From Octopus vulgaris (taxonomy: Eukaryota), in NCBI GenBank assembly GCA_951406725.2, contig OX597815.1, forward strand, positions 73,036,001 to 73,100,000: DNA of 64,000 bases, in the 5' to 3' direction. Shown one piece after another: positions 8,121 to 32,998 of the stretch. The position numbers were made by a program, and so were the translations under genes. The notes under the pieces are model-generated. The model made no database searches, was not told the DNA's origin, and saw only the letters and a list, made by a program, of their open reading frames with translations. Within the stretch, counting starts at the first letter, position 1. Each line of letters starts with the position of its first letter.

Positions 8121-8200
<80 letters not shown>

Positions 8201-8201
<1 letters not shown>

Positions 8202-8562
8202 AAACAAGTGGATGTATTCCACCGAAACTAGGTAAATAAAACCATCGAACAGAGATTGTCGGAAGCGACACCTACTGGCTGGCTACGCTGCATTGAAAAG
8301 GGGCAATACCCTGAAACGCGTCTGTAGCTGCCAGTCAAGTAGTGTGGAGCGACTGACCTCCCTTGTTCGAAGGTTATATGGATACAGTTTGTGTATCAAA
8401 TAGCTAACTTAAGGCGATGGCCTCATGGAGCTAATAAGCGGACAGCTTTTTTCTTATTTTTATAAGAATGCCATATTAGTATGGCGATAACTATTATTTT
8501 CCGGGAACGCTGCCGCTGTTCTCTTTTAGAGAGACTTAGTTATTTTAATATTTCTATTATTG
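8201..8562 (+). repeat. 362-bp hammerhead-containing tandem repeat unit 1 (retrozyme-like) with an empty LINE target site
   Basis: AAAACAAGTGGATG starts at 8201 and again at 8563 and 21916; uninterrupted AGAGATTGTC-GGAAGCGACACCTACTG-GCTGGC at 8251-8283; preceded by (TA)n. Confidence 0.9.
8274..8335 (+). ncRNA. Minimal type I hammerhead ribozyme, U3-A8 core variant
   Basis: Stem I GCTGCA(8287-92)/TGTAGC(8323-28); core TTGAAAA; stem II GGGG-caata-CCCT; GAAA; palindromic ACGCGT stem III; GTC triplet (predicted cut after 8322); outer stem I ACTGGC/GCCAGT. Confidence 0.8.
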
Positions 8563-8619
8563 AAAACAAGTGGATGTATTCCACCGAAACTAGGTAAATA
8601 AAACCATCGAACAGAGATT

Positions 8620-10630
8620 TTATTGTTGTATGCCAGACTTGTTCGGGGACATACTGGCAAGCGTCTAAGCAAACTGGCAACAGAATGGGAGGATTCCCAG
8701 TTCTGTGAGCCGGGGAGTTGTGACGCTGATCAAGAAAGACCCGAGCAAGGGGGATAATATTAGTAATTATAGGCCCATAACTCTACTTAATGTAGAGTTA
8801 AAGATTTTGGCCAAGGTGTTAGCAGAAAGGTTGAAGGTCGTCATGGAAAAACTTGTCGGAAAGGCACAGACATGTGCAATCCCAGGCAGGTCGATCGAAG
8901 ATAATCTTCACCTTCTACGCTACACTATAGACAGGGTTGGGCAATTAGCCGGCAAAGGAGGGGCATTGGTCCATTTAGACCAAAGTAAAGCATTTGATAG
9001 GGTAGATCATCAGTACCTGGCGACGGTTCTCGAAGCGGCTGGGCTAGGTCCTGACTTTCGCGGGTGGATATCAGCTATGTACAGCGGTATCAAGTCCACA
9101 GTCCAGATAAACGGTTACTTAACGGAACCATTTTCGATTAAGCGTTCAGTTCGTCAAGGATGTCCCTTGTCCCCTCTCCTGTACGTTTTGGCTCTTGAGC
9201 CATTGCTGCGGAAGTTGGAGACGGTGAGATGCAATCCTAATGAAATCGGATGCGGTAAGTCTGTTTCTGCGTATGCGGATGACGTCACCTTCATCGTGTC
9301 CAACGAAGCACAACTAACTCGTGTAGAAGGTGCTCTCCGAAGATACGAAGCGGTGGCTGGGGCAAAAGTTAACAAGGACAAGTCCACTAGTTTGCGCCTC
9401 GGCACCTGGAGGAACAAGCCGATATCGTCCAGTGTTGTTGGACACTGGACAGATGGTCCTGTTAAATTGCTTGGAGTTTGGTTTGGTTCAGACTCCCAGA
9501 CGGAGAAAAATTGGAGCGAGGTAGTGACCAAGGTAGAAGCCATAGTTCGGGAGTGGTCCGGAAGGCATCTTTCCTTGAAAGGGAGGGCGGAGGTGGTACA
9601 GGTGTTTATAGCATCTGTAATCACCTATCGCCTGACTGTCGTGCCTTGCCCCGATTTGTGGCTAAGCAAGTTGGATCGACTCCTTTTCCGCTTTTTGTGG
9701 AAGGGAGGAAAGCCACTTGTAAGGCGCTCCGTGTGTTGCCAGGAACCACTAAAGGATGGGCTGGGGATGCCTTGGTTAATGATGCGCAGGCATGCGCTGA
9801 GACTGAGACATCTCTGGTTTCACCTGGAAGGTGATAAGGTGTGGAGTCCGCTGGCAGATAATTTCTTCCCGCAACCGGACTCTATGGAGAGATTTAAACC
9901 CGGTTTCATTAAAAGACGGAACCTGACTTTATGGCAGAAAGAGTGCCGACAGGCACTCTGGCTGATCCACAAGATAGGCAAAGCCGGCTGCGGGAATACC
10001 ACCTCGACATTTTATAGAAGGATGGTAGAGGCAAAAAATGACGACGTCCTAAGAGGGTCTCTGGGGTTCGATGAGGATCAACTATCCGACCTGTTTAAGA
10101 AGACTTTCAAGCCGGGGTATTTGGACAATTACCAAAAATCCCTGACTTGGCAGTGCTATAGGAATGCTCTACCTGTTCGCGATAAGTTATATAGGCATGG
10201 AATGTCAGTGCCACCGACATGTCCAAGATGTGGGTTGGACGATGAAACCGTCCAGCACGCTTTTGTACATTGTCAGGAGCTGTCAGGCTTAATAAGTTAC
10301 GTAGAACACGTGTTGTCGCATCTGGGACGAGTACAGCTATCGGCTGGTTCTATAATAAAGATGATACCGCCAGCTGGACTCTCAAAGGAAGGTGAGGCTT
10401 GTTTTCACTGTACGGTGGCAGTACTGAAAGAGTGTGTGTGGAGAACTAGATTGGAAGGTTTGGTGTCAGGAACCTTTGTCTCTGGATATGGTATGTTAAA
10501 ATACTTCAGATACCATCTAAAGAGCAAAATGGATTTAGAGAAGAGGAACCTGACACAGAAAAAGTATGTGAATCGATGGAAGGATGTGATAAAAAAGGTG
10601 GGTGTGAGTAACCCTGCTTGGTCATCATGA
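8620..10630 (+). pseudogene. Truncated ORF2 (RT + C-terminal CCHC) of copy A
   Basis: Lacks the endonuclease; private TAC>TAA stop at 8666-8668; RT motifs LDQSKAFDRV, QGCPLSP, YADD present. Confidence 0.9.
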
Positions 10631-10866
10631 AGGGAGAAAATAGTCTCTGGGCTCTTAGGCTGTCGGGTAAGAATCCTGACTGTGATATATCTAGCTGGCC
10701 AAAATCATTTTTAATTTTAAAAAAAAAGGAGAAAAGTAAAGTCTAGTATCATAATCAATAATCAACATATGTAAATATCAAACGAACAACGTAAACTTTT
10801 TGTAATTATGTTTTGTATTGTAATGTACTATCTCTGTAAGATTTTTATAATCATAATAAAGATTTA
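8620..10866 (+). mobile_element. Tx1-clade LINE copy A, 5'-truncated
   Basis: Matches the 3' 2.25 kb of the full-length copies; joins the target unit at ...CAGAGATT via T microhomology; followed by the 17-bp target. Confidence 0.93.
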
Positions 10867-10883
10867 GGAAGCGACACCTACTG
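10867..10883 (+). repeat. 17-bp target-site duplication GGAAGCGACACCTACTG
   Basis: Identical copies at 8261, 10867, 16241, 21614, 21976, 27349 and 32723. Confidence 0.95.
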
Positions 10884-11100
10884 ATTTTTCCTTGGATTAC
10901 GTCGGATTATTTTACGCTGTAAGCTGTTATGTTAGTTCGTTCTGTTCTGGATTTACACGTACAATTTTTGGAGTATTAACTTGTGAAACAAAGTAATTTT
11001 CGCCCTTCGGGGTAGAAAATTTCTTTTTATATATGAACTTTAATTCAGTGTGGATTTAATTTTTATCTTGTCTCTTGTGACAAGTCACTTGCATTTTATT

Positions 11101-12582
11101 ATGGATCTTGACTTAACGTCAAATTCTGATTTTCCCGAGATGGGAGAAGTTATAAAGCAAAAGGATACAAAGGAGAAACAAAGTTTTTCGGAAGCCGTTG
11201 GAGGCAATGTTATAGAACTGGAAGTAACAATGGAGGATCTCTTCAAGTTCAGAAAGTTCATACAAAGGAATGGAGAAGAAACGAGAATAATACCGCCCCC
11301 TGACACCTTACAAGCAATCCGTGAGAAGACGGTAATTTATAAGGTATATAATATTAAGGAAAAAAAGATTGCAGATGTAAGAAATGAATTGGTAGAACGG
11401 TGCATGGCACCAATTTGGAACAAGGTTCGCTATGTTGGCCGAGGAGTGAGAAGCGCTACTATTGAAGCGCATTTCGAGTCGGCTAGCATAGCGAAGGAAA
11501 TTTCAACTCAAACGTTGAAGAGTGCAGACATCCTGTTGCTGCCCACGTACTTAGGGCGCAGAACAGCTAAGATAACAATAGAGGATATACCAACAGGTTA
11601 CGATGTAATGTGGGCAGCAACAGCGGTCGTATTCGACGTAGAAGAGAAATTAAACATTTTAAACATGAGGATGAAAGAGGCAAAATTTTGGAAAGGTCAG
11701 CAGCTTGAAATGATCGTTCAAGCTGACAATGCAACGCTGGAGAGTTTGCCAGACAGGGTCTTCGTGGGGGATGGACACACTGCGCGGGTATCGGTTGAGG
11801 GACGTAGGCCCAGATGTTTCAAATGTGGGCAGAAGGGTCACGTCCGCTCAGAGTGCAAAAAGAAAAAACCCGTTAATGCCCCCATTCAAACCGCTGTGGA
11901 GAACAAAGCAGACATCACAGCAACAACTAAAGAGAATACCCGGAAAAAGCAAAATGAAAGTCAAAAGGAGGAAAAGAAAATGAATGGAAAACAAAGCGAA
12001 AACGAAAACGAGGTGGAAAATATTTTATCAAATGGAAAAGAACTGGAAGTAATGGAATATACGACTGTAACCAACAAAAGGAAGAAATCCAATACCCCGG
12101 ACTCCCCACCCCAAACAAAAAGAAAAACAAACGCAGAAGAACAACACAAAAAAATTATCCAATCCCACCCCGCTGGCACTACTTTTGTAGGCCAGCATTT
12201 CATTAAACCCCAGCCCCCAACTTTAAAAGGATTCAAAAAAACCGATAGGTGCATTGCTTATAACATAAAAAACGAGAGAGTAGTTTGGTACATAAAGGCG
12301 AAACCAAACATAAAATGTTTCAAATCATCGGAAAAAAACCCGGATTGGAGGTATGCGAAGGTTGGAGAGGAGGAATGGAAGGAGAGACTCTTCCAACTAC
12401 ACGTGAGGGACAACCTGATTAAAGATGTCACACAAGAGGTGATAGCTGGAAAATTGAATATTAGCCCGGCAGCCACTCCATCCCAGAGCCCGGTGGCAAC
12501 GCCGGTTAAATGCCCAGCAACAACGGAGAGTGTGGGGGAGGCAGGCAGACAAAAGCTGCCATGCTCCCTCTCACAACCGTAA
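11101..12582 (+). CDS. ORF1 gag-like nucleic-acid-binding protein with CCHC zinc knuckle
   Basis: CFKCGQKGHVRSEC knuckle; first ATG at 11101 (ORF track starts at GTG 11050). Confidence 0.88.
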   Translation: MDLDLTSNSDFPEMGEVIKQKDTKEKQSFSEAVGGNVIELEVTMEDLFKFRKFIQRNGEETRIIPPPDTLQAIREKTVIYKVYNIKEKKIADVRNELVERCMAPIWNKVRYVGRGVRSATIEAHFESASIAKEISTQTLKSADILLLPTYLGRRTAKITIEDIPTGYDVMWAATAVVFDVEEKLNILNMRMKEAKFWKGQQLEMIVQADNATLESLPDRVFVGDGHTARVSVEGRRPRCFKCGQKGHVRSECKKKKPVNAPIQTAVENKADITATTKENTRKKQNESQKEEKKMNGKQSENENEVENILSNGKELEVMEYTTVTNKRKKSNTPDSPPQTKRKTNAEEQHKKIIQSHPAGTTFVGQHFIKPQPPTLKGFKKTDRCIAYNIKNERVVWYIKAKPNIKCFKSSEKNPDWRYAKVGEEEWKERLFQLHVRDNLIKDVTQEVIAGKLNISPAATPSQSPVATPVKCPATTESVGEAGRQKLPCSLSQP

Positions 12583-12606
12583 GTAACAAACTTTCTTCAT
12601 TCATCG

Positions 12607-15600
12607 ATGATTAAGTTGGGCTGTATAAATGTGCGTGGAATGGGGTCGAAATGGAAACAGGCTTGCTTGCTGGACGACCTCAGGACACACAGAATAGATG
12701 TAGCCATTGTCACCGAGTCCAAGATGAGAGGAACCCAAGCGTTCTCGCATCTTCTCAATGGTTACGAGAAATTTATTTCTCCTAGCCGAGGAGGAAGTGC
12801 AGGCGTGGCAGTCCTTATCAGGAAGAACTTGGACTTACAGGTAAGTACTGTCTTTATGGACCCAGAAGGTAGGCTGGTTGTCCTCGATGTAACTCACGTA
12901 AGTAAGCAGTCCTTCAGGTTGGTAGCTGTTTATGCTCCTAATGAGGGTAGGCAGACTGGTTTTTATCGGAACTTGGAGCACTTTCTAGTGACGTCTAAAA
13001 CGGTAGTATTGGTAGGGGATTTCAACACTATCATCGATGCGCGGATAGATAGTGTGGGCTCGTCTGATAGAAGGGGGAATCCTTGCCTTAAGGGTCTACT
13101 GACGAGCTTTAATCTAGTAGATCGGTTTCGAATGGATGAGCCGAGCATTCCACAGTGGACGTGGAGTAACAATGACGGCTCACGCAGATCGTATATAGAT
13201 AGGGTATTTGTTAAAGAACGAGATAGGAATAGCATTAGCTGTCCACAATTTTGTATTGTGCCTTACACGGATCACAAATTAGTGACGTGTGAGGTACATG
13301 TAGATAAATGCCATAGACAGGGACCCGGATACTGGAAAATGAACAAGTCTATTTTGGCTTGTGAAGCTTTCCGTAACCGGATTATGGAATTAGTCCAGAG
13401 GGCATTATGTGGAACCATCATTAATAATAGATGGTGGATCGCCCTCAAAAGAGCCATCCGTTTGGAGTCCATTAGATTTAGCAACCAGCTAAGTTTAGAT
13501 AGGACTAGAATAGAGGGCGATTTAGTTAAGAACTTAGACGAGGCAATGGGATCTGGCTGTGCATCTAGAGTGTTAGCAGAGAGAACGATCTTGTACCGTC
13601 ACCTCAATGCCAAGCATGAAGGATGTAGAGTCAGAGCTAAGCTACGTGCAGTGAAACGAGAAGGTATTAATGTTGCCGGATGGGCACGTCGTGTGGAGAG
13701 TCAGAAGGGCAAAAAGTCCTCTATTAAGTCTTTAACTGACGAACAGGGACGCAAAATCTATGGACAGGAGGAGATACAGAAGGTCTTTCAACAGCATTTC
13801 GCTCGGTTGTTTGGGGAGGGCGATCCACTCGAGCGAGGGGAGGACTTACAGAACTTCCTAGCTGGTGGGCCTCGGCTCTCGCCAAGCAGAGCTGAACGCT
13901 GTGAAGGACCGATTACTCCCGCGGAGGTAAGAGGGGTTTTGGCTGAATGCGCCCGGGAAAAGTCGCCGGGACTGGATGGTCTGCCCTATGAGTTTTATTG
14001 TTGTATGCCGGACTTGTTCGGGGACATACTGGCAAGCGTCTACGCAAACTGGCAACAGAATGGGAGGATTCCCAGTTCTGTGAGCCGGGGAGTTGTGACG
14101 CTGATCCAGAAAGACCCGAGCAAGGGGGATAATATTAGTAATTATAGGCCCATAACTCTACTTAATGTAGAGTTAAAGATTTTGGCCAAGGTGTTAGCAG
14201 AAAGGTTGAAGGTCGTCATGGAAAAACTTGTCGGAAAGGCACAGACATGTGCAATCCCAGGCAGGTCGATCGAAGATAATCTTCACCTTCTACGCTACAC
14301 TATAGACAGGGTTGGGCAATTAGCCGGCAAAGGAGGGGCATTGGTCCATTTAGACCAAAGTAAAGCATTTGATAGGGTAGATCATCAGTACCTGGCGACG
14401 GTTCTCGAAGCGGCTGGGCTAGGTCCTGACTTTCGCGGGTGGATATCAGCTATGTACAGCGGTATCAAGTCCACAGTCCAGATAAACGGTTACTTAACGG
14501 AACCATTTTCGATTAAGCGTTCAGTTCGTCAAGGATGTCCCTTGTCCCCTCTCCTGTACGTTTTGGCTCTTGAGCCATTGCTGCGGAAGTTGGAGACGGT
14601 GAGATGCAATCCTAATGAAATCGGATGCGGTAAGTCTGTTTCTGCGTATGCGGATGACGTCACCTTCATCGTGTCCAACGAAGCACAACTAACTCGTGTA
14701 GAAGGTGCTCTCCGAAGATACGAAGCGGTGGCTGGGGCAAAAGTTAACAAGGACAAGTCCACTGGTTTGCGCCTCGGCACCTGGAGGAACAAGCCGATAT
14801 CGTCCAGTGTTGTTGGACACTGGACAGATGGTCCTGTTAAATTGCTTGGAGTTTGGTTTGGTTCAGACTCCCAGACGGAGAAAAATTGGAGCGAGGTAGT
14901 GACCAAGGTAGAAGCCATAGTTCGGGAGTGGTCCGGAAGGCATCTTTCCTTGAAAGGGAGGGCGGAGGTGGTACAGGTGTTTATAGCATCTGTAATCACC
15001 TATCGCCTGACTGTCGTGCCTTGCCCCGATTTGTGGCTAAGCAAGTTGGATCGACTCCTTTTCCGCTTTTTGTGGAAGGGAGGAAAGCCACTTGTAAGGC
15101 GCTCCGTGTGTTGCCAGGAACCACTAAAGGGTGGACTGGGGATGCCTTGGTTAATGATGCGCAGGCATGCGCTGAGACTGAGACATCTCTGGTTTCACCT
15201 GGAAGGTGATAAGGTGTGGAGTCCGCTGGCAGATAATTTCTTCCCGCAACCGGACTCTATGGAGAGATTTAAACCCGGTTTCATTAAAAGACGGAACCTG
15301 ACTTTATGGCAGAAAGAGTGCCGACAGGCACTCTGGCTGATCCACAAGATAGGCAAAGCCGGCTGCGGGAATACCACCTCGACATTTTATAGAAGGATGG
15401 TAGAGGCAAAAAATGACGACGTCCTAAGAGGGTCTCTGGGGTTCGATGAGGATCAACTATCCGACCTGTTTAAGAAGACTTTCAAGCCGGGGTATTTGGA
15501 CAATTACCAAAAATCCCTGACTTGGCAGTGCTATAGGAATGCTCTACCTGTTCGCGATAAGTTATATAGGCATGGAATGTCAGTGCCACCGACATGTCCA

Positions 15601-16005
15601 AGATGTGGGTTGGACGATGAAACCGTCCAGCACGCTTTTGTACATTGTCAGGAGCTGTCAGGCTTAATAAGTTACGTAGAACACGTGTTGTCGCATCTGG
15701 GACGAGTACAGCTATCGGCTGGTTCTATAATAAAGATGATACCGCCAGCTGGACTCTCAAAGGAAGGTGAGGCTTGTTTTCACTGTACGGTGGCAGTACT
15801 GAAAGAGTGTGTGTGGAGAACTAGATTGGAAGGTTTGGTGTCAGGAACCTTTGTCTCTGGATATGGTATGTTAAAATACTTCAGATACCATCTAAAGAGC
15901 AAAATGGATTTAGAGAAGAGGAACCTGACACAGAAAAAGTATGTGAATCGATGGAAGGATGTGATAAAAAAGGTGGGTGTGAGTAACCCTGCTTGGTCAT
16001 CATGA
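12607..16005 (+). CDS. ORF2: APE endonuclease + reverse transcriptase + C-terminal CCHC (1132 aa), L1/Tx1 type
   Basis: CINVRG, VYAP, GDFN, YIDR, TDH (APE); GPGYWKMN; KSPGLDGL, NYRPITLLN, LDQSKAFDRV, VRQGCPLSP, YADD (RT); GGLG; CPRC..ETVQHAFVHC. Confidence 0.96.
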   Translation: MIKLGCINVRGMGSKWKQACLLDDLRTHRIDVAIVTESKMRGTQAFSHLLNGYEKFISPSRGGSAGVAVLIRKNLDLQVSTVFMDPEGRLVVLDVTHVSKQSFRLVAVYAPNEGRQTGFYRNLEHFLVTSKTVVLVGDFNTIIDARIDSVGSSDRRGNPCLKGLLTSFNLVDRFRMDEPSIPQWTWSNNDGSRRSYIDRVFVKERDRNSISCPQFCIVPYTDHKLVTCEVHVDKCHRQGPGYWKMNKSILACEAFRNRIMELVQRALCGTIINNRWWIALKRAIRLESIRFSNQLSLDRTRIEGDLVKNLDEAMGSGCASRVLAERTILYRHLNAKHEGCRVRAKLRAVKREGINVAGWARRVESQKGKKSSIKSLTDEQGRKIYGQEEIQKVFQQHFARLFGEGDPLERGEDLQNFLAGGPRLSPSRAERCEGPITPAEVRGVLAECAREKSPGLDGLPYEFYCCMPDLFGDILASVYANWQQNGRIPSSVSRGVVTLIQKDPSKGDNISNYRPITLLNVELKILAKVLAERLKVVMEKLVGKAQTCAIPGRSIEDNLHLLRYTIDRVGQLAGKGGALVHLDQSKAFDRVDHQYLATVLEAAGLGPDFRGWISAMYSGIKSTVQINGYLTEPFSIKRSVRQGCPLSPLLYVLALEPLLRKLETVRCNPNEIGCGKSVSAYADDVTFIVSNEAQLTRVEGALRRYEAVAGAKVNKDKSTGLRLGTWRNKPISSSVVGHWTDGPVKLLGVWFGSDSQTEKNWSEVVTKVEAIVREWSGRHLSLKGRAEVVQVFIASVITYRLTVVPCPDLWLSKLDRLLFRFLWKGGKPLVRRSVCCQEPLKGGLGMPWLMMRRHALRLRHLWFHLEGDKVWSPLADNFFPQPDSMERFKPGFIKRRNLTLWQKECRQALWLIHKIGKAGCGNTTSTFYRRMVEAKNDDVLRGSLGFDEDQLSDLFKKTFKPGYLDNYQKSLTWQCYRNALPVRDKLYRHGMSVPPTCPRCGLDDETVQHAFVHCQELSGLISYVEHVLSHLGRVQLSAGSIIKMIPPAGLSKEGEACFHCTVAVLKECVWRTRLEGLVSGTFVSGYGMLKYFRYHLKSKMDLEKRNLTQKKYVNRWKDVIKKVGVSNPAWSS

Positions 16006-16474
16006 AGGGAGAAAATAGTCTCTGGGCTCTTAGGCTGTCGGGTAAGAATCCTGACTGTGATATATCTAGCTGGCCAAAATCATTTTTAATTTTAAAAAAA
16101 AGGAGAAAAGTAAAGTCTAGTATCATAATCAATAATCAACATATGTAAATATCAAACGAACAACGTAAACTTTTTGTAATTATGTTTTGTATTGTAATGT
16201 ACTATCTCTGTAAGATTTTTATAATCATAATAAAGATTTAGGAAGCGACACCTACTGATTTTTCCTTGGATTACGTCGGATTATTTTACGCTGTAAGCTG
16301 TTATGTTAGTTCGTTCTGTTCTGGATTTACACGTACAATTTTTGGAGTATTAACTTGTGAAACAAAGTAATTTTCGCCCTTCGGGGTAGAAAATTTCTTT
16401 TTATATATGAACTTTAATTCAGTGTGGATTTAATTTTTATCTTGTCTCTTGTGACAAGTCACTTGCATTTTATT

Positions 16475-17955: not shown

Positions 17956-17979
17956 GTAACAAACTTTCTTCATTCATCG

Positions 17980-21613: not shown

Positions 21614-21992
21614 GGAAGCGACACCTACTGGCTGGCTACGCTGCATTGAAAAGGGGCAATACCCTGAAACGCGTCTGTAGCTGCCGGTCAAGTAGTGTGG
21701 AGCGACTAGACCTCCCTTGTTCGAAGGTTATATGGATACAGTTTGTGTATCAAATAGCTAACTTAAGGCGATGGCCTCATGGAGCTAATAAGCGGACAGC
21801 TTTTTCTTATTTTTATAAGAATGCCATATTAGTATGGCGATAACTATTATTTTCCGGGAACGCTGCCGCTGTTCTCTTTTAGAGAGACTTAGTTATTTTA
21901 ATATTTCTATTATTGAAAACAAGTGGATGTATTCCACCGAAACTAGGTAAATAAAACCATCGAACAGAGATTGTCGGAAGCGACACCTACTG
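21614..21992 (+). repeat. One full period of the 362-bp hammerhead repeat between LINE copies C and D
   Basis: Nearly identical to 8261-8622; 17-mer to 17-mer distance is 362 bp. Confidence 0.93.
21627..21688 (+). ncRNA. Minimal type I hammerhead ribozyme (copy 2)
   Basis: Same motif as 8274-8335; GCCAGT>GCCGGT change converts a U-A pair to U-G. Confidence 0.8.
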
Positions 21993-22209
21993 ATTTTTCC
22001 TTGGATTACGTCGGATTATTTTACGCTGTAAGCTGTTATGTTAGTTCGTTCTGTTCTGGATTTACACGTACAATTTTTGGAGTATTAACTTGTGAAACAA
22101 AGTAATTTTCGCCCTTCGGGGTAGAAAATTTCTTTTTATATATGAACTTTAATTCAGTGTGGATTTAATTTTTATCTTGTCTCTTGTGACAAGTCACTTG
22201 CATTTTATT

Positions 22210-23689: not shown

Positions 23690-23713
23690 GTAACAAACTT
23701 TCTTCATTCATCG

Positions 23714-26700
23714 ATGATTAAGTTGGGCTGTATAAATGTGCGTGGAATGGGGTCGAAATGGAAACAGGCTTGCTTGCTGGACGACCTCAGGACACACAGA
23801 ATAGATGTAGCCATTGTCACCGAGTCCAAGATGAGAGGAACCCAAGCGTTCTCGCATCTTCTCAATGGTTACGAGAAATTTATTTCTCCTAGCCGAGGAG
23901 GAAGTGCAGGCGTGGCAGTCCTTATCAGGAAGAACTTGGACTTACAGGTAAGTACTGTCTTTATGGACCCAGAAGGTAGGCTGGTTGTCCTCGATGTAAC
24001 TCACGTAAGTAAGCAGTCCTTCAGGTTGGTAGCTGTTTATGCTCCTAATGAGGGTAGGCAGACTGGTTTTTATCGGAACTTGGAGCACTTTCTAGTGACG
24101 TCTAAAACGGTAGTATTGGTAGGGGATTTCAACACTATCATCGATGCGCGGATAGATAGTGTGGGCTCGTCTGATAGAAGGGGGAATCCTTGCCTTAAGG
24201 GTCTACTGACGAGCTTTAATCTAGTAGATCGGTTTCGAATGGATGAGCCGAGCATTCCACAGTGGACGTGGAGTAACAATGACGGCTCACGCAGATCGTA
24301 TATAGATAGGGTATTTGTTAAAGAACGAGATAGGAATAGCATTAGCTGTCCACAATTTTGTATTGTGCCTTACACGGATCACAAATTAGTGACGTGTGAG
24401 GTACATGTAGATAAATGCCATAGACAGGGACCCGGATACTGGAAAATGAACAAGTCTATTTTGGCTTGTGAAGCTTTCCGTAACCGGATTATGGAATTAG
24501 TCCAGAGGGCATTATGTGGAACCATCATTAATAATAGATGGTGGATCGCCCTCAAAAGAGCCATCCGTTTGGAGTCCATTAGATTTAGCAACCAGCTAAG
24601 TTTAGATAGGACTAGAATAGAGGGCGATTTAGTTAAGAACTTAGACGAGGCAATGGGATCTGGCTGTGCATCTAGAGTGTTAGCAGAGAGAACGATCTTG
24701 TACCGTCACCTCAATGCCAAGCATGAAGGATGTAGAGTCAGAGCTAAGCTACGTGCAGTGAAACGAGAAGGTATTAATGTTGCCGGATGGGCACGTCGTG
24801 TGGAGAGTCAGAAGGGCAAAAAGTCCTCTATTAAGTCTTTAACTGACGAACAGGGACGCAAAATCTATGGACAGGAGGAGATACAGAAGGTCTTTCAACA
24901 GCATTTCGCTCGGTTGTTTGGGGAGGGCGATCCACTCGAGCGAGGGGAGGACTTACAGAACTTCCTAGCTGGTGGGCCTCGGCTCTCGCCAAGCAGAGCT
25001 GAACGCTGTGAAGGACCGATTACTCCCGCGGAGGTAAGAGGGGTTTTGGCTGAATGCGCCCGGGAAAAGTCGCCGGGACTGGATGGTCTGCCCTATGAGT
25101 TTTATTGTTGTATGCCGGACTTGTTCGGGGACATACTGGCAAGCGTCTACGCAAACTGGCAACAGAATGGGAGGATTCCCAGTTCTGTGAGCCGGGGAGT
25201 TGTGACGCTGATCCAGAAAGACCCGAGCAAGGGGGATAATATTAGTAATTATAGGCCCATAACTCTACTTAATGTAGAGTTAAAGATTTTGGCCAAGGTG
25301 TTAGCAGAAAGGTTGAAGGTCGTCATGGAAAAACTTGTCGGAAAGGCACAGACATGTGCAATCCCAGGCAGGTCGATCGAAGATAATCTTCACCTTCTAC
25401 GCTACACTATAGACAGGGTTGGGCAATTAGCCGGCAAAGGAGGGGCATTGGTCCATTTAGACCAAAGTAAAGCATTTGATAGGGTAGATCATCAGTACCT
25501 GGCGACGGTTCTCGAAGCGGCTGGGCTAGGTCCTGACTTTCGCGGGTGGATATCAGCTATGTACAGCGGTATCAAGTCCACAGTCCAGATAAACGGTTAC
25601 TTAACGGAACCGTTTTCGATTAAGCGTTCAGTTCGTCAAGGATGTCCCTTGTCCCCTCTCCTGTACGTTTTGGCTCTTGAGCCATTGCTGCGGAAGTTGG
25701 AGACGGTGAGATGCAATCCTAATGAAATCGGATGCGGTAAGTCTGTTTCTGCGTATGCGGATGACGTCACCTTCATCGTGTCCAACGAAGCACAACTAAC
25801 TCGTGTAGAAGGTGCTCTCCGAAGATACGAAGCGGTGGCTGGGGCAAAAGTTAACAAGGACAAGTCCACTGGTTTGCGCCTCGGCACCTGGAGGAACAAG
25901 CCGATATCGTCCAGTGTTGTTGGACACTGGACAGATGGTCCTGTTAAATTGCTTGGAGTTTGGTTTGGTTCAGACTCCCAGACGGAGAAAAATTGGAGCG
26001 AGGTAGTGACCAAGGTAGAAGCCATAGTTCGGGAGTGGTCCGGAAGGCATCTTTCCTTGAAAGGGAGGGCGGAGGTGGTACAGGTGTTTATAGCATCTGT
26101 AATCACCTATCGCCTGACTGTCGTGCCTTGCCCCGATTTGTGGCTAAGCAAGTTGGATCGACTCCTTTTCCGCTTTTTGTGGAAGGGAGGAAAGCCACTT
26201 GTAAGGCGCTCCGTGTGTTGCCAGGAACCACTAAAGGGTGGGCTGGGGATGCCTTGGTTAATGATGCGCAGGCATGCGCTGAGACTGAGACATCTCTGGT
26301 TTCACCTGGAAGGTGATAAGGTGTGGAGTCCGCTGGCAGATAATTTCTTCCCGCAACCGGACTCTATGGAGAGATTTAAACCCGGTTTCATTAAAAGACG
26401 GAACCTGACTTTATGGCAGAAAGAGTGCCGACAGGCACTCTGGCTGATCCACAAGATAGGCAAAGCCGGCTGCGGGAATACCACCTCGACATTTTATAGA
26501 AGGATGGTAGAGGCAAAAAATGACGACGTCCTAAGAGGGTCTCTGGGGTTCGATGAGGATCAACTATCCGACCTGTTTAAGAAGACTTTCAAGCCGGGGT
26601 ATTTGGACAATTACCAAAAATCCCTGACTTGGCAGTGCTATAGGAATGCTCTACCTGTTCGCGATAAGTTATATAGGCATGGAATGTCAGTGCCACCGAC

Positions 26701-27112
26701 ATGTCCAAGATGTGGGTTGGACGATGAAACCGTCCAGCACGCTTTTGTACATTGTCAGGAGCTGTCAGGCTTAATAAGTTACGTAGAACACGTGTTGTCG
26801 CATCTGGGACGAGTACAGCTATCGGCTGGTTCTATAATAAAGATGATACCGCCAGCTGGACTCTCAAAGGAAGGTGAGGCTTGTTTTCACTGTACGGTGG
26901 CAGTACTGAAAGAGTGTGTGTGGAGAACTAGATTGGAAGGTTTGGTGTCAGGAACCTTTGTCTCTGGATATGGTATGTTAAAATACTTCAGATACCATCT
27001 AAAGAGCAAGATGGATTTAGAGAAGAGGAACCTGACACAGAAAAAGTATGTGAATCGATGGAAGGATGTGATAAAAAAGGTGGGTGTGAGTAACCCTGCT
27101 TGGTCATCATGA
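23714..27112 (+). CDS. ORF2 APE-RT-CCHC of copy D (intact)
   Basis: 1132 aa, same motifs as copy B. Confidence 0.96.
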   Translation: MIKLGCINVRGMGSKWKQACLLDDLRTHRIDVAIVTESKMRGTQAFSHLLNGYEKFISPSRGGSAGVAVLIRKNLDLQVSTVFMDPEGRLVVLDVTHVSKQSFRLVAVYAPNEGRQTGFYRNLEHFLVTSKTVVLVGDFNTIIDARIDSVGSSDRRGNPCLKGLLTSFNLVDRFRMDEPSIPQWTWSNNDGSRRSYIDRVFVKERDRNSISCPQFCIVPYTDHKLVTCEVHVDKCHRQGPGYWKMNKSILACEAFRNRIMELVQRALCGTIINNRWWIALKRAIRLESIRFSNQLSLDRTRIEGDLVKNLDEAMGSGCASRVLAERTILYRHLNAKHEGCRVRAKLRAVKREGINVAGWARRVESQKGKKSSIKSLTDEQGRKIYGQEEIQKVFQQHFARLFGEGDPLERGEDLQNFLAGGPRLSPSRAERCEGPITPAEVRGVLAECAREKSPGLDGLPYEFYCCMPDLFGDILASVYANWQQNGRIPSSVSRGVVTLIQKDPSKGDNISNYRPITLLNVELKILAKVLAERLKVVMEKLVGKAQTCAIPGRSIEDNLHLLRYTIDRVGQLAGKGGALVHLDQSKAFDRVDHQYLATVLEAAGLGPDFRGWISAMYSGIKSTVQINGYLTEPFSIKRSVRQGCPLSPLLYVLALEPLLRKLETVRCNPNEIGCGKSVSAYADDVTFIVSNEAQLTRVEGALRRYEAVAGAKVNKDKSTGLRLGTWRNKPISSSVVGHWTDGPVKLLGVWFGSDSQTEKNWSEVVTKVEAIVREWSGRHLSLKGRAEVVQVFIASVITYRLTVVPCPDLWLSKLDRLLFRFLWKGGKPLVRRSVCCQEPLKGGLGMPWLMMRRHALRLRHLWFHLEGDKVWSPLADNFFPQPDSMERFKPGFIKRRNLTLWQKECRQALWLIHKIGKAGCGNTTSTFYRRMVEAKNDDVLRGSLGFDEDQLSDLFKKTFKPGYLDNYQKSLTWQCYRNALPVRDKLYRHGMSVPPTCPRCGLDDETVQHAFVHCQELSGLISYVEHVLSHLGRVQLSAGSIIKMIPPAGLSKEGEACFHCTVAVLKECVWRTRLEGLVSGTFVSGYGMLKYFRYHLKSKMDLEKRNLTQKKYVNRWKDVIKKVGVSNPAWSS

Positions 27113-27582
27113 AGGGAGAAAATAGTCTCTGGGCTCTTAGGCTGTCGGGTAAGAATCCTGACTGTGATATACCTAGCTGGCCAAAATCATTTTTAATTTT
27201 AAAAAAAAAGGAGAAAAGTAAAGTCTAGTATCATAATCAATAATCAACATATGTAAATATCAAACGAACAACGTAAACTTTTTGTAATTATGTTTTGTAT
27301 TGTAATGTACTATCTCTGTAAGATTTTTATAATCATAATAAAGATTTAGGAAGCGACACCTACTGATTTTTCCTTGGATTACGTCGGATTATTTTACGCT
27401 GTAAGCTGTTATGTTAGTTCGTTCTGTTCTGGATTTACACGTACAATTTTTGGAGTATTAACTTGTGAAACAAAGTAATTTTCGCCCTTCGGGGTAGAAA
27501 ATTTCTTTTTATATATGAACTTTAATTCAGTGTGGATTTAATTTTTATCTTGTCTCTTGTGACAAGTCACTTGCATTTTATT

Positions 27583-29064
27583 ATGGATCTTGACTTAACG
27601 TCAAATTCTGATTTTCCCGAGATGGGAGAAGTTATAAAGCAAAAGGATACAAAGGAGAAACAAAGTTTTTCGGAAGCCGTTGGAGGCAATGTTATAGAAC
27701 TGGAAGTAACAATGGCGGATCTCTTCAAGTTCAGAAAGTTCATACAAAGGAATGGAGAAGAAACGAGAATAATACCGCCCCCTGACACCTTACAAGCAAT
27801 CCGTGAGAAGACGGTAATTTATAAGGTATATAATATTAAGGAAAAAAAGATTGCAGATGTAAGAAATGAATTGGTAGAACGGTGCATGGCACCAATTTGG
27901 AACAAGGTTCGCTATGTTGGCCGAGGAGTGAGAAGCGCTACTATTGAAGCGCATTTCGAGTCGGCTAGCATAGCGAAGGAAATTTCAACTCAAACGTTGA
28001 AGAGTGCAGACATCCTGTTGCTGCCCACGTACTTAGGGCGCAGAACAGCTAAGATAACAATAGAGGATATACCAACAGGTTACGATGTAATGTGGGCAGC
28101 AACAGCGGTCGTATTCGACGTAGAAGAGAAATTAAACATTTTAAACATGAGGATGAAAGAGGCAAAATTTTGGAAAGGTCAGCAGCTTGAAATGATCGTT
28201 CAAGCTGACAATGCAACGCTGGAGAGTTTGCCAGACAGGGTCTTCGTGGGGGATGGACACACTGCGCGGGTATCGGTTGAGGGGCGTAGGCCCAGATGTT
28301 TCAAATGTGGGCAGAAGGGTCACGTCCGCTCAGAGTGCAAAAAGAAAAAACCCGTTAATGCTCCCATTCAAACCGCTGTGGAGAACAAAGCAGACATCAC
28401 AGCAACAACTAAAGAGAATACCCGGAAAAAGCAAAATGAAAGTCAAAAGGAGGAAAAGAAAATGAATGGAAAACAAAGCGAAAACGAAAACGAGGTGGAA
28501 AATATTTTATCAAATGGAAAAGAACTGGAAGTAATGGAATATACGACTGTAACCAACAAAAGGAAGAAATCCAATACCCCGGACTCCCCACCCCAAACAA
28601 AAAGAAAAACAAACGCAGAAGAACAACACAAAAAAATTATCCAATCCCACCCCGCTGGCACTACTTTTGTAGGCCAGCATTTCATTAAACCCCAGCCCCC
28701 AACTTTAAAAGGATTCAAAAAAACCGATAGGTGCATTGCTTATAACACAAAAAACGAGAGAGTAGTTTGGTACATAAAGGCGAAACCAAACATAAAATGT
28801 TTCAAATCATCGGAAAAAAACCCGGATTGGAGGTATGCGAAGGTTGGAGAGGAGGAATGGAAGGAGAGACTCTTCCAACTACACGTGAGGGACAACCTGA
28901 TTAAAGATGTCACACAAGAGGTGATAGCTGGAAAATTGAATATTAGCCCGGCAGCCACTCCATCCCAGAGCCCGGTGGCAACGCCGGTTAAATGCCCAGC
29001 AACAACGGAGAGTGTGGGGGAGGCAGGCAGACAAAAGCTGCCATGCTCCCTCTCACAACCGTAA
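27583..29064 (+). CDS. ORF1 with CCHC zinc knuckle (copy E)
   Basis: Intact, near-identical to copy B ORF1. Confidence 0.88.
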   Translation: MDLDLTSNSDFPEMGEVIKQKDTKEKQSFSEAVGGNVIELEVTMADLFKFRKFIQRNGEETRIIPPPDTLQAIREKTVIYKVYNIKEKKIADVRNELVERCMAPIWNKVRYVGRGVRSATIEAHFESASIAKEISTQTLKSADILLLPTYLGRRTAKITIEDIPTGYDVMWAATAVVFDVEEKLNILNMRMKEAKFWKGQQLEMIVQADNATLESLPDRVFVGDGHTARVSVEGRRPRCFKCGQKGHVRSECKKKKPVNAPIQTAVENKADITATTKENTRKKQNESQKEEKKMNGKQSENENEVENILSNGKELEVMEYTTVTNKRKKSNTPDSPPQTKRKTNAEEQHKKIIQSHPAGTTFVGQHFIKPQPPTLKGFKKTDRCIAYNTKNERVVWYIKAKPNIKCFKSSEKNPDWRYAKVGEEEWKERLFQLHVRDNLIKDVTQEVIAGKLNISPAATPSQSPVATPVKCPATTESVGEAGRQKLPCSLSQP

Positions 29065-29088
29065 GTAACAAACTTTCTTCATTCATCG

Positions 29089-32000
29089 ATGATTAAGTTG
29101 GGCTGTATAAATGTGCGTGGAATGGGGTCGAAATGGAAACAGGCTTGCTTGCTGGACGACCTCAGGACACACAGAATAGATGTAGCCATTGTCACCGAGT
29201 CCAAGATGAGAGGAACCCAAGCGTTCTCGCATCTTCTCAATGGTTACGAGAAATTTATTTCTCCTAGCCGAGGAGGAAGTGCAGGCGTGGCAGTCCTTAT
29301 CAGGAAGAACTTGGACTTACAGGTAAGTACTGTCTTTATGGACCCAGAAGGTAGGCTGGTTGTCCTCGATGTAACTCACGTAAGTAAGCAGTCCTTCAGG
29401 TTGGTAGCTGTTTATGCTCCTAATGAGGGTAGGCAGACTGGTTTTTATCGGAACTTGGAGCACTTTCTAGTGACGTCTAAAACGGTAGTATTGGTAGGGG
29501 ATTTCAACACTATCATCGATGCGCGGATAGATAGTGTGGGCTCGTCTGATAGAAGGGGGAATCCTTGCCTTAAGGGTCTACTGACGAGCTTTAATCTAGT
29601 AGATCGGTTTCGAATGGATGAGCCGAGCATTCCACAGTGGACGTGGAGTAACAATGACGGCTCACGCAGATCGTATATAGATAGGGTATTTGTTAAAGAA
29701 CGAGATAGGAATAGCATTAGCTGTCCACAATTTTGTATTGTGCCTTACACGGATCACAAATTAGTGACGTGTGAGGTACATGTAGATAAATGCCATAGAC
29801 AGGGACCCGGATACTGGAAAATGAACAAGTCTATTTTGGCTTGTGAAGCTTTCCGTAACCGGATTATGGAATTAGTCCAGAGGGCATTATGTGGAACCAT
29901 CATTAATAATAGATGGTGGATCGCCCTCAAAAGAGCCATCCGTTTGGAGTCCATTAGATTTAGCAACCAGCTAAGTTTAGATAGGACTAGAATAGAGGGC
30001 GATTTAGTTAAGAACTTAGACGAGGCAATGGGATCTGGCTGTGCATCTAGAGTGTTAGCAGAGAGAACGATCTTGTACCGTCACCTCAATGCCAAGCATG
30101 AAGGATGTAGAGTCAGAGCTAAGCTACGTGCAGTGAAACGAGAAGGTATTAATGTTGCCGGATGGGCACGTCGTGTGGAGAGTCAGAAGGGCAAAAAGTC
30201 CTCTATTAAGTCTTTAACTGACGAACAGGGACGCAAAATCTATGGACAGGAGGAGATACAGAAGGTCTTTCAACAGCATTTCGCTCGGTTGTTTGGGGAG
30301 GGCGATCCACTCGAGCGAGGGGAGGACTTACAGAACTTCCTAGCTGGTGGGCCTCGGCTCTCGCCAAGCAGAGCGGAACGCTGTGAAGGACCGATTACTC
30401 CCGCGGAGGTAAGAGGGGTTTTGGCTGAATGCGCCCGGGAAAAGTCGCCGGGACTGGATGGTCTGCCCTATGAGTTTTATTGTTGTATGCCGGACTTGTT
30501 CGGGGACATACTGGCAAGCGTCTACGCAAACTGGCAACAGAATGGGAGGATTCCCAGTTCTGTGAGCCGGGGAGTTGTGACGCTGATCCAGAAAGACCCG
30601 AGCAAGGGGGATAATATTAGTAATTATAGGCCCATAACTCTACTTAATGTAGAGTTAAAGATTTTGGCCAAGGTGTTAGCAGAAAGGTTGAAGGTCGTCA
30701 TGGAAAAACTTGTCGGAAAGGCACAGACATGTGCAATCCCAGGCAGGTCGATCGAAGATAATCTTCACCTTCTACGCTACACTATAGACAGGGTTGGGCA
30801 ATTAGCCGGCAAAGGAGGGGCATTGGTCCATTTAGACCAAAGTAAAGCATTTGATAGGGTAGATCATCAGTACCTGGCGACGGTTCTCGAAGCGGCTGGG
30901 CTAGGTCCTGACTTTCGCGGGTGGATATCAGCTATGTACAGCGGTATCAAGTCCACAGTCCAGATAAACGGTTACTTAACGGAACCGTTTTCGATTAAGC
31001 GTTCAGTTCGTCAAGGATGTCCCTTGTCCCCTCTCCTGTACGTTTTGGCTCTTGAGCCATTGCTGCGGAAGTTGGAGACGGTGAGATGCAATCCTAATGA
31101 AATCGGATGCGGTAAGTCTGTTTCTGCGTATGCGGATGACGTCACCTTCATCGTGTCCAACGAAGCACAACTAACTCGTGTAGAAGGTGCTCTCCGAAGA
31201 TACGAAGCGGTGGCTGGGGCAAAAGTTAACAAGGACAAGTCCACTGGTTTGCGCCTCGGCACCTGGAGGAACAAGCCGATATCGTCCAGTGTTGTTGGAC
31301 ACTGGACAGATGGTCCTGTTAAATTGCTTGGAGTTTGGTTTGGTTCAGACTCCCAGACGGAGAAAAATTGGAGCGAGGTAGTGACCAAGGTAGAAGCCAT
31401 AGTTCGGGAGTGGTCCGGAAGGCATCTTTCCTTGAAAGGGAGGGCGGAGGTGGTACAGGTGTTTATAGCATCTGTAATCACCTATCGCCTGACTGTCGTG
31501 CCTTGCCCCGATTTGTGGCTAAGCAAGTTGGATCGACTCCTTTTCCGCTTTTTGTGGAAGGGAGGAAAGCCACTTGTAAGGCGCTCCGTGTGTTGCCAGG
31601 AACCACTAAAGGGTGGGCTGGGGATGCCTTGGTTAATGATGCGCAGGCATGCGCTGAGACTGAGACATCTCTGGTTTCACCTGGAAGGTGATAAGGTGTG
31701 GAGTCCGCTGGCAGATAATTTCTTCCCGCAACCGGACTCTATGGAGAGATTTAAACCCGGTTTCATTAAAAGACGGAACCTGACTTTATGGCAGAAAGAG
31801 TGCCGACAGGCACTCTGGCTGATCCACAAGATAGGCAAAGCCGGCTGCGGGAATACCACCTCGACATTTTATAGAAGGATGGTAGAGGCAAAAAATGACG
31901 ACGTCCTAAGAGGGGCTCTGGGGTTCGATGAGGATCAACTATCCGACCTGTTTAAGAAGACTTTCAAGCCGGGGTATTTGGACAATTACCAAAAATCCCT

Positions 32001-32487
32001 GACTTGGCAGTGCTATAGGAATGCTCTACCTGTTCGCGATAAGTTATATAGGCATGGAATGTCAGTGCCACCGACATGTCCAAGATGTGGGTTGGACGAT
32101 GAAACCGTCCAGCACGCTTTTGTACATTGTCAGGAGCTGTCAGGCTTAATAAGTTACGTAGAACACGTGTTGTCGCATCTGGGACGAGTACAGCTATCGG
32201 CTGGTTCTATAATAAAGATGATACCGCCAGCTGGACTCTCAAAGGAAGGTGAGGCTTGTTTTCACTGTACGGTGGCAGTACTGAAAGAGTGTGTGTGGAG
32301 AACTAGATTGGAAGGTTTGGTGTCAGGAACCTTTGTCTCTGGATATGGTATGTTAAAATACTTCAGATACCATCTAAAGAGCAAGATGGATTTAGAGAAG
32401 AGGAACCTGACACAGAAAAAGTATGTGAATCGATGGAAGGATGTGATAAAAAAGGTGGGTGTGAGTAACCCTGCTTGGTCATCATGA
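29089..32487 (+). CDS. ORF2 APE-RT-CCHC of copy E (intact)
   Basis: 1132 aa, same motifs as copy B. Confidence 0.96.
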   Translation: MIKLGCINVRGMGSKWKQACLLDDLRTHRIDVAIVTESKMRGTQAFSHLLNGYEKFISPSRGGSAGVAVLIRKNLDLQVSTVFMDPEGRLVVLDVTHVSKQSFRLVAVYAPNEGRQTGFYRNLEHFLVTSKTVVLVGDFNTIIDARIDSVGSSDRRGNPCLKGLLTSFNLVDRFRMDEPSIPQWTWSNNDGSRRSYIDRVFVKERDRNSISCPQFCIVPYTDHKLVTCEVHVDKCHRQGPGYWKMNKSILACEAFRNRIMELVQRALCGTIINNRWWIALKRAIRLESIRFSNQLSLDRTRIEGDLVKNLDEAMGSGCASRVLAERTILYRHLNAKHEGCRVRAKLRAVKREGINVAGWARRVESQKGKKSSIKSLTDEQGRKIYGQEEIQKVFQQHFARLFGEGDPLERGEDLQNFLAGGPRLSPSRAERCEGPITPAEVRGVLAECAREKSPGLDGLPYEFYCCMPDLFGDILASVYANWQQNGRIPSSVSRGVVTLIQKDPSKGDNISNYRPITLLNVELKILAKVLAERLKVVMEKLVGKAQTCAIPGRSIEDNLHLLRYTIDRVGQLAGKGGALVHLDQSKAFDRVDHQYLATVLEAAGLGPDFRGWISAMYSGIKSTVQINGYLTEPFSIKRSVRQGCPLSPLLYVLALEPLLRKLETVRCNPNEIGCGKSVSAYADDVTFIVSNEAQLTRVEGALRRYEAVAGAKVNKDKSTGLRLGTWRNKPISSSVVGHWTDGPVKLLGVWFGSDSQTEKNWSEVVTKVEAIVREWSGRHLSLKGRAEVVQVFIASVITYRLTVVPCPDLWLSKLDRLLFRFLWKGGKPLVRRSVCCQEPLKGGLGMPWLMMRRHALRLRHLWFHLEGDKVWSPLADNFFPQPDSMERFKPGFIKRRNLTLWQKECRQALWLIHKIGKAGCGNTTSTFYRRMVEAKNDDVLRGALGFDEDQLSDLFKKTFKPGYLDNYQKSLTWQCYRNALPVRDKLYRHGMSVPPTCPRCGLDDETVQHAFVHCQELSGLISYVEHVLSHLGRVQLSAGSIIKMIPPAGLSKEGEACFHCTVAVLKECVWRTRLEGLVSGTFVSGYGMLKYFRYHLKSKMDLEKRNLTQKKYVNRWKDVIKKVGVSNPAWSS

Positions 32488-32722
32488 AGGGAGAAAATAG
32501 TCTCTGGGCTCTTAGGCTGTCGGGTAAGAATCCTGACTGTGATATACCTAGCTGGCCAAAATCATTTTTAATTTTAAAAAAAAGGAGAAAAGTAAAGTCT
32601 AGTATCATAATCAATAATCAACATATGTAAATATCAAACGAACAACGTAAACTTTTTGTAATTATGTTTTGTATTGTAATGTACTATCTCTGTAAGATTT
32701 TTATAATCATAATAAAGATTTA

Positions 32723-32998
32723 GGAAGCGACACCTACTGGCTGGCACGCTGCATTGAAAAGGGGCAATACCCTGAAACGCGTCTGTAGCTGCCGGTCAAG
32801 TAGTGTGGAGCGACTGACCTCCCTTGTTCGAAGGTTATATGGATACAGTTTGTGTATCAAATAGCTAACTTAAGGCGATGGCCTCATGGAGCTAATAAGC
32901 GGACAGCTTTTTTCTTATTTTTATAAGAATGCCATATTAGTATGGCGATAACTATTATTTTCCGGGAACGCTGCCGCTGTTCTCTTTTAGAGAGACTT
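32723..32998 (+). repeat. 3' remainder of the third 362-bp hammerhead repeat unit
   Basis: Matches 8261-8537, then runs into (TA)n. Confidence 0.92.
32736..32796 (+). ncRNA. Minimal type I hammerhead ribozyme (copy 3)
   Basis: Core and stems identical; 1-nt deletion confined to the stem I bulge (TGGCAC vs TGGCTAC). Confidence 0.78.

Follow-up and report, generated by a model that had tools for sequence, protein, structure and literature searches.

Tx1 families of long interspersed nuclear elements (LINEs) have been described in DNA transposons, long terminal repeat (LTR) elements, U2, U5, 5S, satellites and microsatellites (PMC4494074). Several LINEs with an apurinic/apyrimidinic endonuclease (APE) are already described inside other mobile elements, namely the Xenopus element Tx1L, whose target is the piggyBac-type Tx1D, and the crocodilian Tx1-Mar, Tx1-8_Crp, Tx1-4_AMi and Tx1-9_AMi; their targets are DNA transposons or LTR elements, whereas the Tx1-like family described here, family A of Octopus vulgaris, sits in a hammerhead retrozyme, at a predicted transcription start (PMC4494074). 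Five copies of family A form an array in the stretch that we analysed, 64,000 nucleotides of contig OX597815.1 (positions 73,036,001 to 73,100,000, forward strand), hereafter the window. Since Tx1 elements in mobile elements are known, a parasite of a parasite is by itself a new target and not a new principle. An earlier note on this DNA had proposed a ribozyme-bearing non-autonomous retroelement as the target; this stands, but it is incomplete, as it left out the descent of family A from a U1 small nuclear RNA (snRNA)-targeting lineage and the start-site position of its insertions. Changes of target among site-specific LINEs have mostly been approached through elements whose divergence is too great for a comparison; in the present case, U1- and retrozyme-targeting families with unrelated targets are ~97% identical in the second open reading frame (ORF2), and a second switch seems to have left a fossil head.

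Among snRNA-gene-specific LINEs, only Keno, Utopia, Dada-U1 and Dada-U6 are listed as of 2015 (PMC4640811). Keno (Tx1 clade) and Utopia (restriction-like endonuclease, RLE) resemble the U1- and U2-targeting relatives of family A in this specificity, but they lie inside U2 before nucleotide 39, whereas the relatives lie at +1 of U2 and U1 with intact snRNA sequence downstream, and family A itself is not in U2 (PMC4640811). The host repeat, which we call unit A, shares with non-LTR retrozymes and the pseudo-LTRs (pLTRs) of Penelope-like elements its ~360-bp tandem units, minimal type I hammerhead, palindromic stem III loop, inverted truncated pieces and (TA)n flanks (PMC7229834, PMC8557442, bioRxiv 10.64898/2026.07.22.740005). 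The last of these, a 2026 preprint, makes the case that the retrozymes of animals derive from Penelope-like elements and are non-autonomous; the words promoter, snRNA and Tx1 are absent from it. In the literature covered, neither a hammerhead retrozyme nor the +1 of an snRNA was seen reported as the site of a Tx1 element; outside it, Repbase Reports and older compilations may hold such families.

The array consists of five same-strand LINE copies, ~5.36 kb at full length, with the 17-mer GGAAGCGACACCTACTG between them; this 17-mer occurs seven times in the window (8261, 10867, 16241, 21614, 21976, 27349 and 32723), and the 362-bp units that carry it are ~99% identical. The features are, by window position, with (+) for the forward strand:

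8127-8198: (TA)n tract on the left border of the retrozyme array
8201-8562 (+): retrozyme unit 1, 362 bp, with an empty site
8204-8217 (+): proximal sequence element (PSE)-like motif of unit 1, a putative promoter element whose core is at -55 relative to the first target base
8261-8277 (+): empty 17-bp target, its first base the predicted transcription start
8270-8345 (+): minimal type I hammerhead, its stem I extended and its core at 8288-8327, predicted cut after 8322
8563-8619 (+): 5' part of unit 2 (positions 1-57), PSE-like element at 8566-8579
8620-10866 (+): LINE copy 1 (c1), 5'-truncated, 2.25 kb, no 5' duplication, 20-nt target loss
10867-10883 (+): 17-bp target copy between c1 and c2
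10884-16240 (+): LINE copy 2 (c2), full length, ORF1 11101-12582 (493 aa) and ORF2 12607-16005 (1132 aa), both open
16241-16257 (+): 17-bp target copy between c2 and c3
16258-21613 (+): LINE copy 3 (c3), full length, both ORFs broken by single-base indels
21614-21915 (+): 3' part of unit 2, target copy and complete hammerhead (core from 21641)
21916-21992 (+): 5' part of unit 3, PSE-like element at 21919-21932, target at 21976-21992
21993-27348 (+): LINE copy 4 (c4), ORF1 interrupted, ORF2 23714-27112 open
27349-27365 (+): 17-bp target copy between c4 and c5
27366-32722 (+): LINE copy 5 (c5), full length, ORF1 27583-29064, ORF2 29089-32487, 3' end AATAAAGATTTA, no poly(A)
32723-32997 (+): 3' part of unit 3, target copy and hammerhead (core from 32749)
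32998-33148: right (TA)n tract

Removal of the LINEs leaves about three 362-bp units between the two (TA)n tracts, as the earlier note had claimed, and the positions of the 17-mer bear out the empty site of unit 1. Units 2 and 3 are indeed interrupted at one and the same 17-mer, except that c1 has no duplication on its 5' side and 20 target bases are gone, so that the restored unit 2 is 3 nt short. The claimed overlap of the 17-mer with stem I holds for its last ~8 nt only, which fall in the extended stem I, and the catalytic core begins 32 nt past the start of the 17-mer; in the window, hammerheads start at 8288, 21641 and 32749. Tandem insertion around a duplication, as seen here, is described for SINEU-3 (PMC4494074).

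The specificity of family A extends far beyond this array. A 30-nt piece from the 3' end of the LINE has 19 exact matches in the genome, every one of them followed by the same target, and with two near-exact copies 21 of 21 family-A 3' ends precede the 17-mer: five within the window, the other 16 spread over 15 loci of 10 contigs; unrelated flanks, in other words, were not found. A 300-bp search, in which 40 of 343 candidates were scored and 42 matches listed, led to 30 fetched loci, 20 of family A, all on target, and 10 more diverged and sister-type, none on target. Full length goes together with an exact 17-bp duplication in 12 of the 16 outside insertions; of the other four, two are truncated but keep the duplication wholly or in part, and two show none. 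The exact 17-mer occurs at 1207 sites genome-wide, against 0 for a reversed control, and a LINE lies directly upstream at 18 of them (1.5% filled). Family A is thus site-specific for a Penelope-style hammerhead retrozyme.

These insertions are largely independent, because the first base of the duplication (G or A) equals the local unit variant at both ends and because LINE and host-unit haplotypes are discordant. A single chance insertion, spread by local amplification or as a unit-LINE-unit composite moved by Penelope-like machinery, could account for private single-nucleotide polymorphisms (SNPs) shared by the window copies, for an inversion junction in L082 that resembles Penelope-type insertions, and for the tendency of younger LINEs toward younger unit variants. 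However, one unit haplotype (L081, L088, L089, L091) carries different LINE haplotypes and, conversely, the near-identical LINE haplotypes of L089 and L094 lie in different unit haplotypes; separately truncated copies (L081 and a 69-bp copy in L090) keep their duplications, and relatives show the same habit in other repeats. With discordant haplotypes and dispersed on-target insertions, this is ruled out as a general explanation and is very improbable overall, while amplification or composite transfer may have contributed to L082 and to part of the window array.

The window copies do bear traces of local events. The full-length copies c2-c5 (5356-5357 bp) differ from each other at 7-11 aligned columns; c1-c3 have two SNPs in common, and c2 and c4 two others, all absent from the 15 outside copies compared where the sites were covered. 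These private SNPs show that local re-insertion or recombination contributed to the array, and while all five LINE copies claimed at the outset are present, the independent immigration of all five does not hold. Duplication of a c2+c3 block into c4+c5 is by itself unsupported, c3 and c5 having no private SNP in common and 11 differing columns, although c2 and c4 do share two SNPs. An assembly artefact is unlikely because each copy has its own substitutions. In c4, the single-base indels that break the frame may themselves be errors, as contigs from sequencing runs show the extra base; contigs of four runs, none on record as RNA, show unit and LINE under three organism labels, given without start, end or strand, which we do not count as evidence.

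The identity of the host follows from its structure. Throughout the genome searched (2.8 Gb, 227 contigs), whole-unit matches are, with few exceptions, 98-100% identical (best 40 of 1229 candidate places), and most of the loci (30 fetched, several overlapping) consist of a short tandem, a truncated piece in the opposite orientation and ends made of (TA)n. Short, non-coding, dispersed tandem units of the ~170-400 bp class, each with a type I hammerhead, are those of non-LTR retrozymes, and the partial tandems, inverted 5'-truncated piece and microsatellite flanks are those of non-autonomous Penelope-like elements, which are described as short tandems with an inverted truncated piece (PMC8557442). 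By these features, unit A is a young, dispersed, Penelope-style non-autonomous retrozyme. An autonomous Penelope-like partner was not seen, none of eight fetched GIY-YIG loci (of 148 listed, 6136 candidates) resembling unit A.

The hammerhead of unit A reads CTGCA / TTGAAAA / stem II / GAAA CGC GTC / TGTAG and is a U3-A8 variant with a one-pair stem III under a palindromic CGCG loop; the usual pair at this place is C3-G8. Our own descriptor gave 52 matches in real sequences against 0 in 937,902 reversed bases (L163, L164 and L174, passed over by its first-match rule, were read by eye), and folding of 8261-8350 gave z = -4.36. A Rfam scan of the array returned no hammerhead match at E<=1, only microsatellite-driven microRNA noise. 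The paired U3-A8 change recurs in a 74%-identical relative of unit A, and stem III loops are palindromic in hammerhead families A, B and D (B and D being targets of related LINEs, below) despite different letters. This speaks for activity of the ribozyme within the retrozyme but gives no reason to assign it a part in the LINE cycle; a one-pair stem III with a palindromic loop is also seen in an axolotl motif (PMC7229834). It is in fact an even call whether the hammerhead is incidental or inactive, the repeat serving the LINE only as an abundant promoter, a reading compatible with the rest of the model set out below: the U1- and U2-targeting sisters have no downstream hammerhead, and the core is off consensus (U3, A8) with no Rfam match, but the recurrent paired change and the palindromic loops speak against it. 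On the minus strand, the target (window 8264-8277, CCAGTAGGTGTCGC) looks like a CTCF motif; if bound, the family would spread more than 1000 such sites.

Both ORFs of family A are open in six copies, in the window and outside it (in the window c2 and c5). ORF1 (493 aa) has a zf-CCHC at residues 238-254 (E 7.4e-5, over the Pfam cut-off), and ORF2 (1132 aa) matches Pfam Exo_endo_phos (the APE endonuclease), RVT_1 and zf-RVT, that is, the N-terminal APE, reverse transcriptase (RT) and C-terminal cysteine-rich zinc motif of L1-group APE LINEs; the PDB matches of the endonuclease are the L1 endonuclease and its chimeras (E 1.7e-10). Among the matches listed, the top named ORF2 homologue by identity is from Argonauta hians (63%). 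Two ORFs, with a CCHC knuckle in ORF1, are the plan of the Tx1 clade and that of family A, which also has the multicopy target specificity and fixed-length duplication of Tx1 elements. Named Tx1 references were absent from the 120 listed homologues and from 10 clusters looked up, and we call the family Tx1-like from its architecture and behaviour rather than from a tree with named Tx1 families.

The nearest sisters of family A point to U1 snRNA. They carry the same 3' end (AAAGATTT), followed by (T/C)ATAC, the start of U1, in 9 of 16 loci, mostly off target; one of them (L102) is inserted at Rfam model position 1 of U1 (125 bits), within a U1 cluster. A junction of U1 bases 1-17 with the LINE occurs twice, once in the region of that cluster, after a LINE-type end, and once in L098, whose site is not U1. 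The latter element matches family A at 97-98% over ORF2 and at 93.5% over ORF1. A rooted tree of 21 chosen elements and four outgroups, built on the C-terminal 352 aa, nests family A within five U1-type elements via starred branches; monophyly of these five is rejected (approximately unbiased test, p-AU 5e-5), and DNA trees agree with the nesting. On this phylogenetic evidence, family A descends from a U1 snRNA-targeting lineage. Two neighbourhoods of these sisters stand out: the region at C18:48.98-49.07 Mb (L104, L119-L127) is a U1 snRNA cluster with central nested broken LINE relatives, and in L098 two convergent U2 genes (812-1005 and 7396-7589) enclose the U1-headed LINE, their downstream flanks forming an inverted repeat.

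The habit of using repeats as targets is widespread among more distant relatives. From an endonuclease search (best 150 of 9340 candidates scored), ~50 related loci were examined. Twenty relatives fetched whole are 78-89% identical; in 12 of them another hammerhead repeat follows directly 3' (nine by descriptor, three by eye) and in one a hammerhead repeat lies upstream of a tandem junction, the others being in U2 (one), another LINE's 5' end (one), a TATA-box repeat (one) and sequence without an assigned repeat (two), or damaged (two). Thirteen further junction pairs, two from arrays already sampled, fall at U2 +1 (two), in hammerhead family C (one), in the 74%-identical unit-A-like retrozyme (one), at a (TC)n 3' junction (three) and in other repeats (six). 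One element (L209) lies in U2 from Rfam model position 1 (184.5 bits). The (TC)n junctions belong to the 62-63% families (3/3), which share this feature with Kibi, a fish (TC)n-specific Tx1; family A, unlike Kibi, has no microsatellite targets (PMC4494074). Hammerhead families B, D and E can be aligned with each other, whereas A and C do not align with them. Two LINE lineages, ~80% alike in the endonuclease, are stacked at one family-B target (L167, L168), and a young family (L180, L204-L207, L217, L218) forms tandem arrays on several contigs, its target repeat starting TCTACTGAGTAC and having no PSE-like motif upstream.

The U1, U2 and hammerhead targets have a common position with respect to an upstream motif. 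CAGTG (AAGTG in A) lies at -55 to -59 from the first duplicated base in U1, U2 and hammerhead families A-E; AGTG is common to five of five unalignable upstreams within 5 nt, a result matched by 4 of 2000 shuffles. In held-out U4 and U5 genes, ATCAGTG is at the same place in two of four loci, with variants in the other two, and this recurrence indicates that the motif marks a PSE-like element of Octopus vulgaris, ~50-65 bp upstream of +1 and common to U1, U2, U4 and U5. With a matrix from six snRNA upstreams (U1/U2/U4/U5, anchored by eye), the -55 position is top of 698 in unit A, at 9.7 bits (background fraction at 8 bits, 0.0005). The match is clear for A, C and L170, and limited to a seven-base core in D, E and some B units. 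The first duplicated base is therefore predicted to be the transcription start of an snRNA-type promoter in unit A, and the PSE-like element would act as that promoter. Newt satellite 2 is a hammerhead repeat described with an snRNA-type RNA polymerase II (Pol II) promoter (PMC2220036, citing Coats 1994), whereas the promoter of unit A is read from sequence only; in the cited account of the newt repeat, unlike for unit A, no LINE is mentioned (PMC2220036). The comparison suggests that mollusc retrozymes, like newt satellite 2, may be driven by snRNA-type promoters. Other insertions, in L181 (30 nt after TATAAA), L202/L203 and L212/L213, lie ~30-37 nt after a TATA box in repeats, which suggests that start-site use may go beyond snRNA-type promoters.

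The flanks of the LINEs seem to keep a record of their transcripts. In L098, U1 bases 1-17 have been carried to a foreign, non-U1 site, and at two loci the order is U2 promoter, U2 bases 1-14, a 14-mer and the LINE, this 14-mer head matching the family-D hammerhead target at 13 of 14 positions. Such foreign heads of 14-17 nt suggest that LINE transcripts start at the first duplicated base, and the family-D-like head would be a fossil of an old address, kept after a switch from retrozyme to U2. Off-target U1-type copies lie at sites similar to the start of U1, and the genomic target of L097 lacks two of the junction bases, as expected for priming within a read-through tail.

We propose, with a probability of roughly 0.58, that the LINE inserts at +1 of snRNA-type promoters, borrows them, and has its specificity fixed by read-through target RNA. 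The LINE would nick at the transcription start of a retrozyme unit, duplicating the first 17 transcribed bases; the host promoter would then transcribe +1 to +17, the LINE and, by read-through, the regenerated downstream target. Pairing of the read-through tail with the primer strand at the first nick, and annealing of the 5' head at the second, would give precise junctions and bring each lineage back to its repeat of origin. Through a start-site bias, probably by contact with SNAPc (snRNA-activating protein complex) or the initiation complex, a rare copy would land at +1 of a different repeat, whose flanks would become its new address; family A, whose ancestry is phylogenetically supported, may have arisen by such a switch from the U1-targeting lineage. 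Ty3 and TRE5-A are positioned near start sites by Pol III factors, at Pol III genes and not at Pol II snRNA-type promoters. That target-derived RNA flanks aid precise priming is described for R1Bm, SART1 and R2, whose targets, unlike that of family A, are rDNA or telomeres (PMC7265360, PMC4494074); for R1Bm in particular, reverse transcription is reported to be accurate only with downstream target present (PMC7265360), and cotranscription with targets can strengthen LINE specificity (PMC4494074). If RNA flanks and promoter position are indeed the address, this is a natural case of reprogrammable LINE targeting, and with six copies with open ORFs the contributions of endonuclease, RNA tail and promoter are separable by simple swaps.

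A more elaborate version is tentative and, on balance, somewhat doubtful: a two-tier address in which contact with the initiation machinery sets the nick at +1 and hammerhead-trimmed RNA flanks choose the repeat, so that one insertion reprograms the LINE with no change of endonuclease, the U1-to-retrozyme and retrozyme-to-U2 switches being instances of this. Here the downstream hammerhead, intact after duplication, could speculatively cleave the read-through transcript at a point 62 nt beyond the end of the LINE, so that the LINE RNA would have a defined, target-complementary tail.

Alternatively, the endonuclease or another domain may read the target DNA itself, as in Tx1L, a few substitutions having moved the lineage from U1 to the retrozyme and the start-site match reflecting selection for transcription. 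The Tx1L endonuclease nicks its own target sequence-specifically in vitro (PMC1950540), none of the 21 family-A insertions is in another PSE-bearing repeat, the U1-start-like off-target sites lack the motif, and derived endonuclease changes do exist: residues 23, 26 and 84 are the only ones at which family A differs from both U1-type copies. Yet U1 bases 1-17 and the family-A target share little beyond a terminal AC.G, and the hairpin T185-S195, which aligns with L1 T192-S202 and has been studied as a specificity element (PMC1950540), is the same in the A, U1, C and D targeters and in some that target B. Moreover, L164 (target B) and L166 (U2) show no difference in the C-terminal 352 aa and three in the endonuclease, and selection for a promoter does not require a duplication that starts exactly at +1, since Utopia and Keno insert before U2 nucleotide 39 (PMC4640811). 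The L098 endonuclease shows no excess of amino-acid change (11 replacement and 8 silent, like other domains, inflated by decay). We consider direct reading unlikely, but the strongest competitor for the source of specificity.

Inheritance through RNA alone, with no tethering, would be a further possibility: RT would jump from the 5' end of an abundant host RNA (U1, U2 or retrozyme) to the LINE RNA and so form the junction, and in later cycles both junctions would be copied from RNA flanks pairing with any nicked homologous DNA, stacks being possible template-jump concatemers. This would account for the +1 registration, the foreign 5' heads, the promoter-less off-target sites with U1-like starts and the private SNPs common to the stacked c1-c3. 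It needs, however, an extra step to put the first chimera in an intact promoter-bearing copy; duplication length tracks LINE lineage, at 17 for the U1 and A types and 14-15 for B, C and D, which points to nicks set by protein, and the L166-type U2 insertion has a true U2 duplication beside the old head. We therefore hold it to be rather improbable.

Insertion at +1 with specificity fixed by read-through RNA has, for its part, several observations to contend with: (i), the expected position is top in three of eight hammerhead units (A, L170 and L165, not L163, L169, L173, L176 and L179), and the motif of unit A is the most divergent (ACAAGTGG vs ATCAGTGR); (ii), four off-target U1-type insertions have no motif at -56, so that the promoter is not required for insertion, while the targets of L204-207 and L217/218 have no PSE-like motif upstream and other relatives are in (TC)n; (iii), the three endonuclease substitutions, or ORF1 (93.5% in L098), could alter specificity, and the endonuclease comparison is limited because both U1-type copies compared are dead; (iv), no family-A copy with its own 17-mer was found at a foreign site; and (v), hammerheads with a one-pair stem III are said to need dimers (PMC7229834), so that a lone downstream hammerhead may cut poorly.

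Several other elements were seen. At 53962-57605 of the window lies a decayed Penelope-like element with RT, CxxxxCxxC linker and GIY-YIG-type domain in broken frames (54867-56736) and a 920-bp, 97.7% inverted repeat (53962-54874 / 56688-57605); it does not resemble unit A, gives no hammerhead match with the descriptor, and is ~70% identical to a family with an open 781-aa frame. That family, found at L182, L183 and L189 (C16, C5 and C6), is young, with an RT/GIY-YIG frame of 781 aa preceded by a separate frame of 359-479 aa, and no hammerhead was found in its 5.2 kb. Another Penelope-like family (L185, L188) has a terminal repeat that holds a hammerhead-like motif with a CCGAAGA core, L185 showing a 766-bp perfect inverted repeat. 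In the window, a 231-aa frame at 3465-4160 looks by eye like a decayed Tc1/mariner transposase, 3394-3568 and 4750-4929 make up a 77% inverted repeat, and at 46173-46858 a 279-bp, 88% inverted repeat surrounds TTAGGG-like repeats (46481-46580), with another copy near 62116-62310.

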